This document shows, in pieces, positions 1 to 20,176 of a DNA stretch of 28,272 nt (within the stretch, counting starts at the first letter, position 1; every line of letters begins with the position of its first letter). The position numbers and the translations under genes were made by a program. The DNA is taken from contig JBBDYC010000003.1 of the NCBI GenBank assembly GCA_040901985.1, positions 1 to 28,272 of the forward strand, in the 5' to 3' direction. Under the pieces are notes generated by a model. The model saw nothing but the letters and a program-made list of their open reading frames with translations, did not search any database and was not told the DNA's origin. This DNA comes from Gemmatimonadaceae bacterium. GTDB taxonomy: Bacteria > Gemmatimonadota > Gemmatimonadetes > Gemmatimonadales > Gemmatimonadaceae.

Positions 1-14
1 AGGATGTCGCCGCT

Positions 15-302
15 TTGATCGGCTGGCCATCCTCCTTCCAGATGTACTACGGGACCGAGTTCCACTCCTATAAGAAGCTCGAGGCATTGGTGCCCACGAA
101 GTGCTACTTCGCGACACCCCACCACTCTTGGGAGCGCGGCAGCAACGAGAACGTGAATGGGCTCTTTCGGCAGTACGCGCCGAAGCGCACCTCGATGGAG
201 CACCTGACGCAGCGGGACTGCCAGCGTATCGCCGACAAACTCAACCGCCGGCCGCGCAAGCGACTCGGCTTCAGAACCCCGGAGGAAGTCTATGCCGCGT
301 AG
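15..302 (+). pseudogene. IS30-family DDE transposase, C-terminal fragment
   Basis: Motifs GTEF...YFATPHHSWERGSNENVNGLFRQYAPK...LNRRPRKRLGFRTPEE are typical of IS30 transposases; the expected DNG before TEF reads YYG, so the second catalytic Asp is absent. Confidence 0.8.
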
Positions 303-309
303 CGATCAG

Positions 310-335
310 TGTTGCGCTTCAAAGTTGACTTTACA
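310..335. repeat. IS30-type right terminal inverted repeat
   Basis: tgttgcgcttcaaagttgactttaca; reverse complement TGTAAAGTCAACTTTGAAGCGCAACA has the IS30 IR pattern TGTA..TCAA...CGCAACA. Confidence 0.8.
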
Positions 336-360
336 ACGCCGCTCGCGACCACGTGTCTAT

Positions 361-723
361 CTAGTCTGGGAACAGGTCCTGCAGTTCTGGAGGAATGTCA
401 TCCAAGGCGCCACGCCACGGCCCATTCGAGCGCGCGAGACGCTCGCGGTACGCCGCGTCCAGCGTCTCAAAGTCAAAGTCCAGTCCAGCGTCGTCCGGTA
501 CGCGCAAGCCATGGTGTAACCGTCGATGCACCCAATCCTTCTCGCCACGCGACAGATCCCGACCGAGCAGAAACTCAATGCGGTCAATTTCGTCGTGTGT
601 GCGCCGATGTTGCTCTTTAACGCGATCCGCGAATGCACGAAGCGCCGGCGAGTCGCGCCTTTGCATTTCGTCCATCAAGCGCGAAATCCGAGCTACAAGA
701 TCGTCCGATTCGTCAAGTGGCAG
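361..723 (-). CDS. Integron cassette 3 hypothetical protein (start uncertain: CTG at 723 with GGAG upstream, or TTG 678/ATG 675)
   Basis: ORF begins just after the attC1 crossover; frame is open from 723 (LPLDESDDLVARISRLMDEMQRR...); no recognisable family. Confidence 0.65.
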   Translation of the reverse strand: MPLDESDDLVARISRLMDEMQRRDSPALRAFADRVKEQHRRTHDEIDRIEFLLGRDLSRGEKDWVHRRLHHGLRVPDDAGLDFDFETLDAAYRERLARSNGPWRGALDDIPPELQDLFPD

Positions 724-739
724 GAACTGTCTCCGGTCG

Positions 740-873
740 TCCTAACGTGGGCTTGTGCTGTGGCCGTTCCAATGATTGCGGCGGCGGGGCCGCCGCGTCG
801 TCCCTGAAAATAGAGCGGTGGCCCCGCCGCCGCTTCCTTCGCCACGGCCATCAGTCACCAAGCGTCGTTAGAC
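740..873 (-). other. attC site 1 (134 bp)
   Basis: Minus strand R'' GTCTAAC-GACGC-L'' TTG[G]TG[A]CTG ... CAGCACAA-GCCCAC-R' GTTAGGA; two extrahelical bases; long internal GC stem (gcggcggcggggccgccgc / gcggtggccccgccgccgc). Confidence 0.93.
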
Positions 874-882
874 AGCCCCGAG

Positions 883-1359
883 CTAGGAAGCGAAGAGCCA
901 TGGCCGGATCAGTTCCACCTGGATCGCGTCGTTGTGCGGGTCGAAGAAGTCCTGGTAGGCGGTGCCGAGCGCAAGCACCCACTCTACGGTCTCTATGCTT
1001 CCCTCAAGTGCGTGGATTCGCTTCTCTTCGAGATCTGCTTGGAAGTGAAACACTGTGTGGCGGTATCGCTTCAGAGTTTCAACGTGATCCGCGGTGAGTA
1101 ACTCGTCAATCTTTGGGTCAGCGAGCTTCAACTCGCGCCACCCCTCAGTGAGCACGTGCAGGCTGGCGACCCAGTACGAAATGAAGGTGCCAGCCCGGAA
1201 GTAGTCGTGAGCCGCGTGCTCGATCCCAGCACGTCGCTCCGCGTAGTACGGAGCGGCCGCCTCACTCATCGTGCGAGAGTGTCGGTAGTACTTCCAAAGC
1301 GCAAGGAAACGGCGTGCCCGGCGCTGAACGTGTGGGGGCCAACTCGTTGGGATCGGCAC
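883..1359 (-). CDS. Integron cassette 2 protein with HEPN-like RxxxxH motif (putative RNase/defence protein)
   Basis: Fills the cassette between attC2 and attC1; helical-looking 158 aa with LKRYRHTVFH (R-H-T-V-F-H) preceded by SYWVASLHVLTEGW. Confidence 0.75.
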   Translation of the reverse strand: MPIPTSWPPHVQRRARRFLALWKYYRHSRTMSEAAAPYYAERRAGIEHAAHDYFRAGTFISYWVASLHVLTEGWRELKLADPKIDELLTADHVETLKRYRHTVFHFQADLEEKRIHALEGSIETVEWVLALGTAYQDFFDPHNDAIQVELIRPWLFAS

Positions 1360-1377
1360 TCGATCGTCTGTGGGTCT

Positions 1378-1474
1378 GTCTAACGTGGGCTTGTGCTGCG
1401 GACACTCTAATAGAATGCGGCGGCGAAGCCGCCGCCATCAATAGCGTGGCCGTCTGCACCAAGCATCGTTATGC
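1378..1474 (-). other. attC site 2 (97 bp)
   Basis: Minus strand R'' GCATAAC-GATGC-TTG[G]TGCAG[A]CGG ... CCGCAGCACAA-GCCCAC-R' GTTAGAC; internal hairpin gcggcggc-gaa-gccgccgc; higA stop TAA lies inside R''; 19 bp identical to attC1 (1380-1398 = 742-760). Confidence 0.93.
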
Positions 1475-1768
1475 AACGCGGGCGCGCCGCTTCGTCTTCA
1501 GCGTTACCGCGACGCCCAACCGGCTGAGCATGTCCACCAGCGTGTCGATGCTGAACAGCTCGATGCGTCCCCGGACCAGATCGCTGATGCGCGGCTGCGT
1601 GACCCCGAGGGCCTTGGCGGCCTGCTTCTGCGTAAGACCGCGCTCCGCGATGAGCCCGGTCAGCTGGATCATCAGATCCGTGCGGATGAGCAGGTGGGCC
1701 GCCTCCTCGCGGGGGAAGCCCATATCCCTGAAAACGTTGCCGGACGAGCGCTGCATACGAATGGCCAT
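1469..1768 (-). CDS. higA: HigA-family antitoxin (XRE/HTH)
   Basis: ATG at 1768 with AGGAGGG upstream; SSGNVFRDMGF N-terminal motif and HTH GLTQKQAAKALGVTQPRISDL; downstream of toxin. Confidence 0.9.
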   Translation of the reverse strand: MAIRMQRSSGNVFRDMGFPREEAAHLLIRTDLMIQLTGLIAERGLTQKQAAKALGVTQPRISDLVRGRIELFSIDTLVDMLSRLGVAVTLKTKRRARVA

Positions 1769-1772
1769 GGAA

Positions 1773-2108
1773 CTATCCCTCCTGACGCGCCCGGCGCACC
1801 GCCGCAAAGCGGGCGCGCGCGAGCGCAAGATCGAGTGGCGATGTCTTCTGCGACTTCTTCTGGAACACGTGCAAGACGTACACTGCCTCGGCGAACTTCG
1901 CCACGTACACGAGCCGGAAGGCACCGCCAGCCCGCACGCGAATTTCAGCCACTCCCGGGCCGATGGACGGCATCGGCTTCCAGTCGCGCGGCACGTGCCC
2001 CAGCTGCACCAGACGTAGGTCGAAGCCCAACTGCCGCTGGGCCTCGGGTGGGAGCGATTGAATGTCGGCGCGCGCCGACCCGACCCAAGTGAGGCTTTTC
2101 GCGGTCAC
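1773..2108 (-). CDS. higB: HigB/RelE-superfamily (Gp49-like) toxin
   Basis: DWKPMPSIGPGVAEIRV...FRLVYVAKFAEAVYVLHVFQKKSQKT; toxin-before-antitoxin order. Confidence 0.9.
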   Translation of the reverse strand: MTAKSLTWVGSARADIQSLPPEAQRQLGFDLRLVQLGHVPRDWKPMPSIGPGVAEIRVRAGGAFRLVYVAKFAEAVYVLHVFQKKSQKTSPLDLALARARFAAVRRARQEG

Positions 2109-2113
2109 GAGGA

Positions 2114-2142
2114 AGTATACAATATTTCGTATATATGCGCAA
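2114..2142 (-). promoter_or_regulatory. higBA sigma70 promoter with overlapping palindromic operator
   Basis: TTGCGC-17 bp-TATACT, 5 nt before the GTG start; inverted repeat TATAC-N8-GTATA at 2116-2133. Confidence 0.8.
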
Positions 2143-2177
2143 GGGCGACTCTCGGATCACACGGAGGTCGGGCGCTT

Positions 2178-2228
2178 GCATAACGTGGATTAGACAGCAT
2201 CTACTTGGGCCCACGAACTCACAGCCCT
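2178..2228 (-). other. attI site (crossover G/TT at 2184/2183)
   Basis: Minus strand TGTCTAATCCAC-GTTATGC; GTTATGCAA is the exact complement of the TA cassette's R'' region TTGCATAAC, which defines the cassette boundary; upstream DNA does not fold as an attC. Confidence 0.75.
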
Positions 2229-2233
2229 CGAAG

Positions 2234-2262
2234 AGTATCAACCCACCCCCGCGACCCCGCAA
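2234..2262 (-). promoter_or_regulatory. Putative cassette promoter Pc
   Basis: TTGCGG (2262-2257)-17 bp-GATACT (2239-2234), pointing at attI about 50 bp downstream. Confidence 0.65.
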
Positions 2263-2281
2263 CTCCCCGCCGCGCCCGTCG

Positions 2282-3304
2282 TTAGCCCTCCGGCCGCCGC
2301 CGACCCCTCCCCGCGTTATGCTGCAACGAACGCGAGGATTGCGGGGCGGGGTCGAGTGGACTCCGCACGCCAAGCCCCCCGCGGTTCAGGACGTGCGTGT
2401 AGATCATCGTCGTGCTCACGTCACGGTGGCCGAGTAGTTCCTGCACAGTGCGTATGTCATAGCCAGCTTCCAATAGGTGCGTCGCAAACGAGTGCCTAAA
2501 TGTGTGACAGGTCACCCGCTGCGTAATGCCCGCCGCCCGCGCGGCGTCGGTCACGGCGCGCTGAAGGACGGTCGGGTGAAGGTGGTGGCGCCTGATCGTC
2601 CCGGTCCCGCCTTCTACGTACCGGCGCGCCGCCGGAAAGACCCACTGCCACGCGAACTCAGTCGCCGCGGAGGGGAGCTTTCGGCCTAGGGCATCGGGGA
2701 GGACGACCGCCCCGCTCCCGGCCCGCAGGTCGCGCGCGTGCAGTCGCTTGACGCGCGCCAGCTGCGCGCGGAGGGCGGGCTCGAGGCTGGCGGGGAGCGT
2801 CGTTCGTCGGTCGTGGCCGCCCTTGCCCGCCCGGACCAAGACCTCCCCCCGCACGAGGTCCACGTCCTTCACCCGTAGCGAGCAGCATTCGTTGAGGCGA
2901 AGGCCGGCCCCGTAAAGCAGCGACGCCATCAGCCGGCATTGACCCTCCACCAGCGCCAGGACCTCGGCGACCTGCTCGTGGCTGAGGACCGTCGGGACGT
3001 GCCGAGTCCGCCTCGCCGGCTCGATCCCCTGCGGCGGGCCCATCGGGATCCCGAGGACTTCGCGATAGAGGAAAAGGATCGCGGCCATCGCCTGGTTCTG
3101 CGTTGACGCGCTCACCTGCGCGCGCGTGGCGAGATGGCTGAGAAACGCGCGGACGTGCGTCGCCTCGAGCTGCGTCGGATGCCGCGCGCCGTGGAACCGG
3201 ACGTAGCGCTTCACCCACGTGATGTAGGTGGCGATCGTGCGCGGGCTGTAGCGCCGCGTGCGCAGGATCTCGGTGACCTGGTCGAGCAGACGGGGCGGGG
3301 ACAC
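2282..3304 (-). CDS. intI: Integron integrase (tyrosine recombinase IntI)
   Basis: [53 protein letters not shown]; IntI-specific insertion [26 protein letters not shown]; catalytic R-H-R-H-Y intact. Confidence 0.97.
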
Positions 3305-3338
3305 GGGAAGAATTCCGCAGTCCGCGGCCCGCGGGCGG

Positions 3339-3689
3339 TCACCGAATCGTGTCTCCCGGCATCATCGCGTCCCCCGTCCTGACCGTGCCACTTGGCTCGA
3401 ACAGCACGACCTCGGCCCACTCCTCCACCACCGGCCGGTGCTCGACGCCGCGCGGGACGATGATGAACTCGCCCGCCCGGACCTCCACGCTTCGGTCGCG
3501 GAACTCCATCCGGAATCGCCCGCGATGCACGAGAAAGCACTCGTCCTCGGCGGTGTGCCGATGCCAGATGAACGCGCCGCGGAACTTCGCGGCCTTGACT
3601 TGCTGACCGTTCAGCTCGCCGATCACCACGGGCTGCCACGCGTCGGTGATCGCGGCAAAAACGGCGTCGAGCGTGACCTTGTCGATCAT
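3339..3689 (-). CDS. Cupin domain protein
   Basis: ATG at 3689 overlapping upstream stop (ATGA); [13 protein letters not shown] and [10 protein letters not shown] cupin motifs. Confidence 0.9.
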
Positions 3690-4348
3690 CGGAAGCTCGG
3701 GGCGTGACGGGTCTGGACGTTCGCGCCGGCGAGCAGTGGCGCAAGGAAGGTCGCGATCAGACCGGACGGATTGGGAACTGCCGCGACCTCGGCGTGCGGA
3801 CCGGCGCTGGTCGGCGAAACTCCGTCGAGCAGTTCCCGATGCGTGATGATCCGCGGGCGCTCGGCTCCGGGCGCGTACACCACCACGCACTCCTCGTCGC
3901 GTCCCAGCGCGGTCGCATCGCCGACGAGGTCGAGCCCGAAGTGGGAGCCAAGGTCCACGCGCGTGCGCGCACCATCGGCCGTCGCGACCGTCGCCGAGAC
4001 GGGTGCATCGTCGAGCAGCACCCGGACCGGAAACTGCGCCAAGTCGTACGCCTTCATCGTGAAGACCGCACCGACACGCGCTCGCTCCAGTAGCGCAGTG
4101 ATCTCGCCCGGCGGCGCGCCGCTTGCCGGCGGTTCAATGATCACCGCGCCGCGCCCATCACTCGCCGCCAGCGCCACGAGCAGCTGCGGCGACGCCGGGA
4201 GCAGCAACGCCGAGCGCCGGCCCGCCAGCGCGCGCACCAGCGGCACACTCCGCTGGAGCAGCGTAAACCCGGCGGCCACCAACTTCGTGACGGCGATTCC
4301 GTCTATCGAACCACCAGCCGCCGCCACCCGGAGAGGAAAGAGGTCCAC
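3686..4348 (-). CDS. Short AMP-binding (acyl-CoA synthetase N-terminal)-like protein
   Basis: GTG at 4348; SALLLPASPQLLVALAASDGRGAV and EECVVVYAPGAERPRIITHRELL resemble a degenerate ANL-family N-domain/YTSG loop; 220 aa. Confidence 0.6.
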   Translation of the reverse strand: MDLFPLRVAAAGGSIDGIAVTKLVAAGFTLLQRSVPLVRALAGRRSALLLPASPQLLVALAASDGRGAVIIEPPASGAPPGEITALLERARVGAVFTMKAYDLAQFPVRVLLDDAPVSATVATADGARTRVDLGSHFGLDLVGDATALGRDEECVVVYAPGAERPRIITHRELLDGVSPTSAGPHAEVAAVPNPSGLIATFLAPLLAGANVQTRHAPSFR

Positions 4349-4498
4349 GTGCGCCGAGGAGAAGGGGAGAAGTGAGGGTGAGGGTGAGGAAGGGGATGAC
4401 GAGAAAATGGGCGAGGGAGAGGCGAGGCAACGCCGGAAACCTAGCCGCCCGCACGGGTCGTCCACCTCCCGGCTCCCATCCCGCATCTCCCCCCTCCC

Positions 4499-4504
4499 TA
4501 TATT
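4499..4504 (+). promoter_or_regulatory. -10 element of probable leaderless glmM transcript
   Basis: TATATT 6 nt before the ATG at 4511, no Shine-Dalgarno. Confidence 0.55.
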
Positions 4505-4510
4505 TCCCCG

Positions 4511-5950
4511 ATGCCCGACCCTCGCTTGATGATCTCCGTCTCCGGCATCCGTGGCCGCGTGGGCTTCGGGCTGACGCCGGAAGTCGTGGCACGCTACGCG
4601 GCGGCATTCGGGGCGTGGGCGGTTGGGCGCGCGGGAAGGCCCGGCACCTCGTCCGCGGCCAAGCCAGGCACCTCGTCCTCGGGGAACGCCGACCCCTCGC
4701 GCGCAGTCGTGCTCGGCCGCGATTCGCGCGTCACCGGGCCGCTCTTCCACACGGTCACCCGCGCGGCGCTCGAAAGCGTCGGTGCCGACGTCATTGACGT
4801 CGGCCTGACGACGACGCCGACACTCCAACTCGCGGTCGAGCATCACCACGCAGCGGGCGGGATCTGCATCACGGCAAGCCACAATCCAATCGAGTGGAAT
4901 GCGCTCAAGTTCATCGGGCCCGACGGCCTGTTCCTGAGCGCGGAGCTGGGCGCCGAGATGCGCGCGCTGGTCGAGGCGGGAATCCCGTACGCCACCTGGG
5001 ATGCGCTCGGCTCCACCCGATTCGACGGCGATGCGATTTCGCGGCACCTCGATGCCGTGTTGGCGTTGTCGGTCATAGATGTGGACGGAATCCGGTCGCG
5101 GACGTTCAAGGTCGCCTACGACGCCTGCCGCGGCGCGGGCGGGGCAATCATTCCCCGACTGCTCGAACTCCTCGGCTGTGAGGTGCACGCGATCGAGCTG
5201 GAGACGGATGGCCGCTTTCCCCGTCCGCCGGAGCCGATCGCCGAGAACCTCGCCGCGCTCGAGGAGCTGGTGAAGAAGACGGGCGCCGATGTCGGCTTTG
5301 CCACGGATCCGGACGTGGACCGGCTCGCCCTGGTCGCGAATGACGGCAAGGCGATCGGCGAGGACTACACGCTGGCGTTGGCGACACGTGTCGTGCTGCG
5401 ACACCGGAAGGGTCCGGTGGTCACGAACCTCTCGACGAGCCGGATCGTGGACGATATGGCGGCGGAGCACGGCGTCGCGGTGACGCGGGCGCCGGTGGGC
5501 GAGGTGCACGTCGCGCTCAGGATGCGCGAGGCACAGGCGGTCATCGGCGGCGAGGGAAATGGCGGGGTGATCCTCCCCGAACTCCACCTCGGCCGCGACG
5601 CGCCGCTCGCCGTGGCACTCGTCTTGCAGTTGTTGCACGAGGATGGGGAGAAGCTCACGAAGATCGTAAAGCGATTCCCTCGGTACGCAATCATCAAGGA
5701 GAAGCTGGATCGCCCCGACAAACCACTGACCGCGGTCTACGGGGCGCTGCGAAAGGCCTTCCCGGACGCCGTGGCGGACACGCAGGACGGCTTGCGACTG
5801 GCCTGGCCGGACCGCTGGGTGCATATCAGGCCATCCGGCACCGAACCAATCATCCGGGTCATCGCCGAGGCCCCAACCCGCGCCGACGCCGAGTCCCTGG
5901 TCGAGCGCGGCCGAAGCTTATTGAAGGAGCTGGCCACCTTTCACCTTTGA
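4511..5950 (+). CDS. glmM: Phosphoglucosamine mutase
   Basis: SVSGIRG, catalytic TASHNP, metal loop DPDVDR, GEGNGG, IRPSGTEP; directly upstream of glmS. Confidence 0.9.
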   Translation: MPDPRLMISVSGIRGRVGFGLTPEVVARYAAAFGAWAVGRAGRPGTSSAAKPGTSSSGNADPSRAVVLGRDSRVTGPLFHTVTRAALESVGADVIDVGLTTTPTLQLAVEHHHAAGGICITASHNPIEWNALKFIGPDGLFLSAELGAEMRALVEAGIPYATWDALGSTRFDGDAISRHLDAVLALSVIDVDGIRSRTFKVAYDACRGAGGAIIPRLLELLGCEVHAIELETDGRFPRPPEPIAENLAALEELVKKTGADVGFATDPDVDRLALVANDGKAIGEDYTLALATRVVLRHRKGPVVTNLSTSRIVDDMAAEHGVAVTRAPVGEVHVALRMREAQAVIGGEGNGGVILPELHLGRDAPLAVALVLQLLHEDGEKLTKIVKRFPRYAIIKEKLDRPDKPLTAVYGALRKAFPDAVADTQDGLRLAWPDRWVHIRPSGTEPIIRVIAEAPTRADAESLVERGRSLLKELATFHL

Positions 5951-19388: not shown

Positions 19389-20176
19389 GCGCCGTCGCCC
19401 TCGTCCTCCGCGCCGGCGCGCGTGACCTCGCGCGGAATCGCTGGCTCCTCGCCTATGGCCTCGGCCTCGCCGGTGTCGCCGAACTCCTCTTCCTCTTTGG
19501 GGGGGCGGGGAATCAGGTGGTGTTGAGCCTGCTCAACGCGACGTTGCTGCTGGTCCCGCTCGTCGCGCTCGTCTTCGGCACGATGCACGTCTATGCCTCG
19601 CGCGAGTTCATCGAGCTGCTGCTCGCGCAACCCCTCGCGCGGCCGGCCGTCTTCACCGGGCTCTACCTCGGGCTCGCGCTTCCGCTCACCGCCGCCTTCC
19701 TGCTCGGCATCGGGGTGCCGCTCCTGCTCCACGGCGCGGCCGCGGAGGCGCCAAGGGCCGCGCTCGTCGCACTCGCGGCGGGCGGCGTATTCCTCACCGC
19801 CACGTTCAGCGCGCTCGCGATGGCGATCGCCCTCGGCACCGACGACCGCCTCAAGGGGATGTCGCTCTCGCTCGCCGCTTGGTTCCTCCTCACGATCGGC
19901 TACGATGGTGGCGTGCTGGCCGTCGTCTCGCTCTTCGGAAACTGGCCGCTCGAGCGCCCCCTCCTCGGGCTGATGCTCGGCAACCCCGTGGACCTCGCGC
20001 GCGTGCTGGTGCTGACCTCGCTCGACGCCTCCGCCCTGCTCGGCTACACGGGGGCGCTCTTCCGTCGCGCCTTCGGTTCGGCGGTCGGGCCGCTGATTGC
20101 CCTCGCCGCCCTGTCACTCTGGTGCGCGCTCCCCGTCTCTCTCGCCCGTCGGCGCTTCGTTCGGCGCGACTTCTGA
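19385..20176 (+). CDS. nosY: NosY ABC permease
   Basis: GTGA overlap with nosF; multi-TM; REFIELLLAQPL and NPVDLAR motifs. Confidence 0.92.
   Translation: MSAVALVLRAGARDLARNRWLLAYGLGLAGVAELLFLFGGAGNQVVLSLLNATLLLVPLVALVFGTMHVYASREFIELLLAQPLARPAVFTGLYLGLALPLTAAFLLGIGVPLLLHGAAAEAPRAALVALAAGGVFLTATFSALAMAIALGTDDRLKGMSLSLAAWFLLTIGYDGGVLAVVSLFGNWPLERPLLGLMLGNPVDLARVLVLTSLDASALLGYTGALFRRAFGSAVGPLIALAALSLWCALPVSLARRRFVRRDF

Follow-up and report, generated by a model that had tools for sequence, protein, structure and literature searches.

The window analysed here, a stretch of 28,272 bases that forms the start of contig C3 in a 2.64-Mb, 19-contig assembly of a Gemmatimonadaceae bacterium (GCA_040901985.1), carries near its beginning an integron integrase gene (intI) which points towards its own attachment site (attI) and a short array of gene cassettes (Table 1). 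A promoter candidate (Pc) and the attI are followed by three cassettes and two cassette recombination sites (attC), all on the same strand as intI, and the GC content over the array is 60–66%, down from ~70%. We consider it probable that this is a chromosomal co-oriented (‘reverse’) integron with its attI at position 2184, where the integrase (IntI) likely inserts cassettes by the standard integron reaction. The integron is likely still in use, because the cassettes found at this point differ in its relatives and in a population that occurs alongside it. A first-pass annotation, made from the sequence alone, had already described the locus as a ‘complete’, active, sedentary reverse integron; ‘complete’ holds only in the IntegronFinder sense, as cassette 3 is cut by an IS30-family insertion sequence (starting at 335) and by the contig end (position 1), and has no attC in the window.

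Table 1. Features of the integron and its surroundings in the window.
Feature	Position	Strand	Details
IS30-family element, right part	46..335	+	26-bp inverted repeat 335–310; transposase C-terminus ends at 302; NF033563
Cassette 3	336..745	-	open reading frame (ORF) 678–361; attC predicted beyond the IS30, outside the contig
attC2, 134 bp	740..873	-	R'' GTCTAAC ... R' GTTAGGA; crossover G 746
Cassette 2	746..1383	-	one ORF; ATG 1269–883, 128 aa; 158 aa from GTG 1359
attC1, 97 bp	1378..1474	-	R'' GCATAAC, L'' with extrahelical base, L', R' GTTAGAC; crossover G 1384
Cassette 1, toxin-antitoxin-type pair	1384..2183	-	likely own promoter TTGCGC-17-TATACT, 2142–2114, 5 nt before the GTG start
Helix-turn-helix (HTH) antitoxin-like gene (HigA-like), HTH_37, 99 aa	1469..1768	-	PF13744, E 2e-22
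Gp49/DUF891 toxin gene, 111 aa	1773..2108	-	PF05973, E 5e-24
attI simple site	2178..2196	-	L box TGTCTAA (2196–2190), TCCAC, crossover G/TT 2184/2183, R box GTTATGC
Pc candidate	2234..2262	-	TTGCGG (2262–2257), 17 nt, GATACT (2239–2234); between intI stop and attI
TGCAGCATAAC within the intI tail	2315..2325	-	IntI half-site-like, opposite-facing; block partly conserved among orthologues
intI, integron integrase, 340 aa, intact frame	2282..3304	-	TIGR02249
Cupin gene	3339..3686	-	PF07883; 34 nt between its end and the intI start; a neighbour of chromosomal type rather than a cassette

The intI frame is intact and ends where it was first annotated; its product scores 440.5 bits against TIGR02249 (cut-off 265), covering positions 1–313 of the 315 in the profile. 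Residues 7–318 align almost without gaps to VchIntIA (2A3V; E 1.1e-87), the IntI-specific insertion region included. The catalytic motifs are all present (GLR(136), KGG, HTFR(267–270), H293 and Y302), and the catalytic R-K-H-R-H-Y set is intact. The C-terminal tail runs ~20 aa past the usual SPLD end, and the block TGCAGCATAAC within it could conceivably serve as an accessory binding site.

The boundaries of cassettes 1 and 2 validate themselves, as the first-pass annotation noted: the 9-bp complements are exact (GTTATGCAA/TTGCATAAC and GTTAGACAG/CTGTCTAAC, both 9/9), and each 9-mer of both pairs is confined to its two places in the whole assembly, both strands considered. A third match in the genome to the 9-mer of cassette 3 lies in a tRNA gene and is due to chance. 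Both attC sites have the R''/L''/L'/R' arrangement with an extrahelical base, both have their top strand on the minus strand, and their bottom strands fold (z −4.90 for attC1 and −8.35 for attC2; 0/200 shuffles as good). A sequence-only attC model (without base pairs, and trained partly on these two sites) gave no other match below E 0.1 in the window apart from opposite-strand echoes of attC1 and attC2; our hairpin finder, which makes ~0.05 false calls per 10 kb and misses many sites, gave one marginal attC call at 19,692, and an Rfam scan of positions 1–5000 returned nothing near a gathering score. The stop codon of the antitoxin-like gene of cassette 1, which matches TIGR02607 weakly and under its cut-off, falls within R'' of attC1; its partner, the Gp49/DUF891 gene, we take to be RelE/HigB-like. 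The proteins of cassettes 2 and 3 have no Pfam, NCBIfam or PADLOC family, and their Atlas leads were unnamed clusters (cassette 2) or under the bar.

The crossover G at 2184 lies within TGTCTAATCCAC-GTTATGCAA, and three tests agree that this is the attI. Firstly, AAT(C/A)(C/A)AC/GTTA is found 150–176 nt past the IntI core in all 16 orthologues of the genus clade with downstream sequence; positions −7 to +4 are conserved at 94–100% among them and conservation fades after +11, whilst no pair of the 16 first cassettes can be aligned at E<=1e-4 (pairs score a median of 25 over the platform but 14 over the cassettes). Secondly, a motif-free test was applied to the 31 loci, from 139 distinct intI loci collected, that have a same-strand attC downstream: the complement of R'' matches 8–9 of nine bases at a GTT box after intI in 22 of them, with AA at −7/−6 in 17 of these, at −8/−7 in three, and at neither in two. 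Thirdly, a natural variant in a sediment metagenome continues differently from the same point, as described below. The motif at 2192–2181 is also the sole YAA(T/C)-N4/5-GTTA of the entire window, and the site combines a position adjoining intI, a non-hairpin structure, and cassette turnover at G/TT.

The junction could instead be a decayed attC or a chance secondary site, with intI brought to face the array by a local inversion or insertion. The L-box side of 2184 does resemble an R'' box, and passages of Cury et al. 2016 (PMC4889954) describe one class 1 integron with an inverted integrase. However, folding, orthologues and the IntI tree largely refute this explanation, which we regard as scarcely credible: the region 2175–2290 forms no hairpin (z +0.66), the same motif recurs at the same distance in 16/16 orthologues, and the co-oriented IntIs form one side of a split with a support of 98. 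Nor was any convincing attI- or attC-like site detected upstream of intI in the window by motif scan, hairpin finder or sequence-only model; the array, attI and intI all share one strand.

The attI seems to resemble a symmetric tyrosine-recombinase core, in which the L box TGTCTAA/T mirrors the R box; the class 1 site attI1 is less symmetric, its L box CCCTAAA mirroring the R box less closely than TGTCTAAT does in the window. The TGTCTAA/T border lies 6 bp from G/TT. In attI1 the mapped top-strand cut falls between adenines at the L-box border (PMC4792948, from the portion of that text consulted) and, measured in the attI1 sequence, likewise lies 6 bp from the G/T cut; the idea that reverse attI cores are shorter than attI1 was dropped on this ground.

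The natural variant comes from X1, a public sediment run holding 94% of sampled words; among the runs listed as holding such words, none was of RNA. Two X1 contigs converge on positions 2181–2210, over which they are identical at 30/30 bases; one (776 nt, depth 20.6) continues as the window’s cassette, and the other (448 nt, depth 24.4) carries unrelated sequence from the base after GTTA onward. The alternative sequence was not found among the GTTAGCG contexts of the assembly. Insertion of another first cassette into this attI would be expected to leave such a footprint, and because the shared 30-bp stretch differs freely between species, the swap would be recent on that scale. The term ‘active’, as used in the first-pass annotation, thus appears to hold only in the sense of turnover between near-identical populations. 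Two further X1 joints (sides 20 and 34) were set aside, since cross-matching between attC sites that resemble one another explains them best; runs X2 and X3 gave short pieces only.

The case for Pc is comparative, since a standard sigma-70 consensus scan of positions 1900–3500 reported no promoter. In 13 of the 16 orthologues a conserved TTG block is followed, at a distance of exactly 17 nt, by a hexamer that has A at position 2 and T at position 6, the spacer sequence being variable; other spacings are found once at 16 nt and three times at 19 nt, and nowhere else between 13 and 21. The Pc-like promoter of the first-pass annotation is likely to be genuine and to lie at 2262–2234, with its conserved spacing in its favour and its consensus match, given below, against it. 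In class 1 integrons, intI and the array diverge and Pc lies inside intI. Here the Pc candidate is placed beyond the intI stop, an arrangement that would spare it a collision with the intI promoter, and as no terminator-like site was found in a scan of 1900–3500, read-through from intI could reach the cassettes and add to their expression. Close variants of the Pc candidate also occur immediately ahead of the start codons of toxin-antitoxin cassettes in this genome, TTGCGC-17-TATACT in the window and TTGACT-17-TATACT on contig C16. In these cassettes (2142–2108; C16:970–928) only 5–6 nt separate the end of the −10 box from the GTG start, a spacing suggestive of leaderless transcripts, and an A/T-rich palindrome between the −35/−10-type boxes may be an operator.

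Several observations weigh against a working integron of the kind proposed. In the motif-free test, 9/31 loci fail the self-validation by the R'' complement; the Pc candidate matches only 7/12 consensus bases and is absent or shifted in 3/16 orthologues; upstream synteny is limited to 6/16 orthologues (flanks 0.7–4 kb); and decay has affected many of the other attC sites of the genome. X1 holds two platform alleles (depth 13.4 and 20.3, with five differences over 60 nt), and its contigs give no linkage between platform allele and first cassette. Because two alleles are present, the two first cassettes may mark two long-separated strains rather than present activity, and X1 may itself be the source sample of the assembly. 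The two alleles and the decayed attC sites, together with the IS30 in the array and the lack of a promoter motif common to the orthologues upstream of intI (by eye), would fit a genuine platform that is now dormant, with intI silent or inactive and the different first cassettes reflecting past turnover in lineages since separated. We think dormancy unlikely: the intI frame is open with every catalytic motif in place, both R''/R' pairs remain 9/9, and the identity of the two X1 contigs over a stretch that varies between species points to a recent swap.

In the favoured reading of an integron still in use, IntI would bring together attI, in double-stranded form, and the bottom strand of an attC, in folded form; one strand would be exchanged at G/TT, and the junction would be resolved by replication, by analogy with class 1 as set out in the portion of PMC4792948 consulted, so that each incoming cassette would take the first place in the row. 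An attC-homing IS30 would later have landed at the R'' box of cassette 3, leaving its attC intact beyond the contig gap; across that gap we would predict the IS30 left end, followed by CGTCCTAAC and a full attC.

IntI exceeds the family cut-off in 40 of the 61 genomes searched among relatives, with matches at E<=1e-100 in 32 of 55 genomes of the genus. In a 126-row tree the window IntI lies within a 17-member genus clade with a Shimodaira–Hasegawa-like approximate likelihood-ratio test (SH-aLRT) value of 99. In a 36-row tree, for which 22 rows were chosen by hand as co-oriented or having a downstream motif, and which has no Vibrio or class 2 rows, those 22 (Treponema, Chlorobiaceae and the window among them) form one side of a branch (SH-aLRT 98), opposite 12 divergent-side rows (class 1, cyanobacterial, Blastocatellia) and two Xer rows. 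The window IntI thus falls on the Treponema-type side, in line with the phylogenetic check that the first-pass annotation had proposed. The Xer root fell on opposite sides in the two trees and is unstable; the notion that the reverse layout is ancestral, favoured by the root of the 126-row tree and contradicted by that of the 36-row tree, was rejected, given such long outgroups. Cyanobacterial IntIs (L050, L064, L070, L073, L074, L085) have an attI-like YAA-N6-GTT upstream of intI, in a divergent layout, unlike most other IntI matches, which have a YAA-N5-GTT box downstream.

At loci of the genus and order with a convincing attC call the array lies downstream of intI and is co-oriented, as it also does in Gemmatirosa kalamazoonensis (L218); orientations were called with the hairpin finder, which made a few doubtful upstream calls (L080, L083, L101, L102). 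The co-oriented layout is the norm in the genus. The first-pass annotation was right that this is a minority layout, although it overrated its rarity. A reverse layout with a putative downstream attI is already published for Treponema and Archaea, Gemmatimonadota are already listed as integron hosts in the part of PMC8618304 consulted, and the relevant sections of Cury et al. 2016 note an inverted-integrase group and state that attI is unknown for most integrons. The portions of PMC2426708 and PMC3108266 consulted contain no passage on orientation.

In the sections of PMC3607928 and PMC7691350 consulted, the Treponema integrons are reverse, with a putative attI and Pc downstream of intI. As in the Treponema denticola type, intI of the window faces its attI and cassettes, the putative attI and Pc lie between the intI end and the first cassette, and a cassette-gene stop codon lies inside R''. 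The window differs in its phylum, in an IntI only ~48–54% identical to spirochaete matches, in a short array with cassettes scattered over many loci, and in an attI position backed by 16 orthologues and a co-occurring variant. The text of Ghaly et al. 2022 (PMC9668308), as far as consulted, places the archaeal attI immediately downstream of intI, with two putative sites; like the one described here, it was located by comparison and has a canonical insertion point. With class 1 (L219) the window shares 50% IntI identity, the G/TT crossover and the attC geometry, the extrahelical base lying nine after AAC; unlike the mobile class 1 integrons, it has no clear DR1/DR2 beside its attI.

The same genome holds a second reverse integron on contig C17 (2005–1022 and 950–46; L001), whose full-length IntI is 60.6% identical to that of the window and whose first cassette is a two-gene unit with DUF2283 and a 9/9 R'' match. 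Its presence, with its own co-oriented array, also tells against the favoured reading: since attC sites of one family occur on at least eight contigs, the array in the window could be real but worked by the C17 integrase, the window intI being a passenger. This appears very improbable, as the C17 attI is of a different type (GTGAAT-N5-GTT), common to the clade of C17 itself, whereas the attI type of the window follows the window IntI clade in 16/16 cases; recognition of attI by its cognate IntI is stated in the portion of PMC4792948 consulted.

The genome was scanned under strict criteria for attI-like boxes with a 9-mer that agrees with the R'' that follows. Four were found, whereas each of two resampled genomes gave 0: those of the window and of C17, an ordinary attC junction, and C16:3789. 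The last has no adjoining intI and resembles the attI and Pc region of the window, with an attI-like CAATCCACC-GTTAGCCAG and a TTGCGG block upstream. It is followed on the minus strand by a 2.7-kb stretch (C16:3789–1072; L002) with merA-, merP-, merT- and merR-like genes, the merR-like stop lying within an attC R'' that matches 9/9. It would appear that an entire mer module has been taken up here as a single cassette, and our literature search found no paper on such a cassette. Two further attI-like starts without intI (C11:99812, L005; C8:74511, L006), whose next R'' matches 8–9/9 by eye, were missed by the strict scan.

The IS30 remnant at the array end matches NF033563 at 91.7 bits (cut-off 80) and is 80–87% identical to copies inserted at att sites in L173, L172 and L157. 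The family is marked by its transposase, terminal repeats of ~26 bp and a 2–3 bp duplication; the window holds the right end only, and the duplication is taken from relatives. Membership of the IS1111-attC group was ruled out, as the protein is of the IS30 family and the repeats are terminal rather than subterminal. Bases 336–338 equal the last three of cassette 3’s first 9-mer, GTTAGGACG, which is what a 3-bp target duplication at R'' would give. Three IS30 right ends in the genome (C3, C16, C9) each stand after a cassette gene, preceded by three bases that begin the predicted R'' 9-mer, and R''-like boxes lie directly beside two free left ends (C19, C11); the only copy with both ends on one contig (C2) lies off att sites and has a 3-bp duplication. 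The C19 start was considered as the rest of the window’s element, being the only free left part, and was rejected on its mismatched CGG flank. The copies on C3 (window 1–45) and C16 (1–45) are broken at the same base by another repeated element (compare the C19 start), and the ends of this interrupting element, near 45 in the window, break the assembly.

NF033563 matches occur in 62 of the 301 genomes of the order. Part of the copies were taken for a survey, giving 53 distinct copies with a recognisable left repeat (two more were dropped); the counts that follow include kin and are not independent. In group A, to which the window’s element belongs, GTT(A/G) lies exactly 9 nt before the repeat in 18/23 copies, with insertion at R'' and a 3-bp duplication. 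In group B the same register is found in 10/14 copies, with insertion at R' and a 2-bp duplication, and it is found in 0/15 scorable copies of the remaining lineages. From 80 metagenome loci, 39 were scorable (37 lacked an anchored repeat, three were too short, and one was a duplicate), and 32 of these have the 9-nt register. In group B the insertion point is 9 nt beyond the G of the R' box; such copies were seen at L125, L149, L166, L168, L170, L172, L174, L178 and L223, with transposases 32–38% identical. The duplications of several IS30 copies do not match, as could result if copies had recombined with one another; genome G251 has two group B copies with swapped duplications, as after such an event.

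According to published titles and abstracts, IS1111-attC elements and group IIC-attC introns are the known attC-selecting mobile elements and insert in one orientation. The element of the window differs from both in its family, its terminal 26-bp repeats and its 3-bp duplication, and in landing just outside the R box, where the attC would stay whole. It shares family, terminal inverted repeats, a short target duplication and hot-spot targeting with IS30 of Escherichia coli; that element, in the part of PMC9333248 consulted, uses near-palindromic hot spots and its own repeats as targets and makes a 2-bp duplication, and the word ‘integron’ is absent from the paper. We found no paper on an attC-register IS30 in the literature searched, which excludes most subscription journals. 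Other att-associated ends were also seen. Short subterminal inverted repeats CTATGACTGGGC / GCCCAGTCATAA adjoin an attC R' box at the C11 end, C11 start, C14 start and C7 end, which may reflect an unassembled IS1111-type element. An element with ends GAGGCTGTAG / CTACAGCCTC lies directly at the GTT box of an attC on C9:322006–320210 (L003) and of attI in L013 and L237, and is possibly a further att-seeking insertion sequence.

We put forward tentatively, leaning slightly against it, a broader reading in which the platform is the hub of a distributed system. IntI would also serve attI copies that stand at other chromosomal loci without an integrase, and at one of these the mercury-resistance module would have been captured whole, its four genes in one 2.7-kb cassette; two IS30 lineages would read the IntI binding boxes, insert 9 nt from GTT at R'' or R', leave attC intact and travel as cassette cargo; and reverse integrons would share an almost symmetric attI, YAAT-N4-GTT, by which they could be sought in other phyla. 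What the locus and its genome add is an attI placed to the base, a cassette swap seen in nature, an IS30 that homes to attC, and the apparent mer cassette. A precise attI offers a ready recombination substrate for a reverse integron and a model with Pc uncoupled from intI, the array-end IS30 points to a class of integron-homing elements that we did not find in print in the literature searched, and a mer module bounded as one cassette would show that chromosomal integrons can pick up whole operons.

As judged by its GlmS, the host belongs to the Gemmatimonadota, the phylum that the first-pass annotation had thought probable: identity is 75%, 75% and 65% to the proteins of three named Gemmatimonadota genomes, but falls to 56% for an acidobacteriotal (Acidobacteriota) and 54% for a myxococcotal (Myxococcota) genome. 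The description as sedentary also holds, the platform occupying a fixed chromosomal locus without a surrounding mobilising element. Its neighbours are of housekeeping type (cupin, phosphoglucosamine-mutase-like and GlmS-like genes), and at least one upstream neighbour (the cupin gene, the gene preceding it, or the mutase gene) recurs in each of the six syntenic orthologues; in the other 10/16 the upstream genes differ or the flanks are short. The cupin gene likewise lies upstream of intI at L107, L108, L116 and L193. A 220-aa ORF at 3689–4348 (minus), which has no Pfam or NCBIfam family, adjoins the mutase gene in L106, L108 and L118 as it does here.

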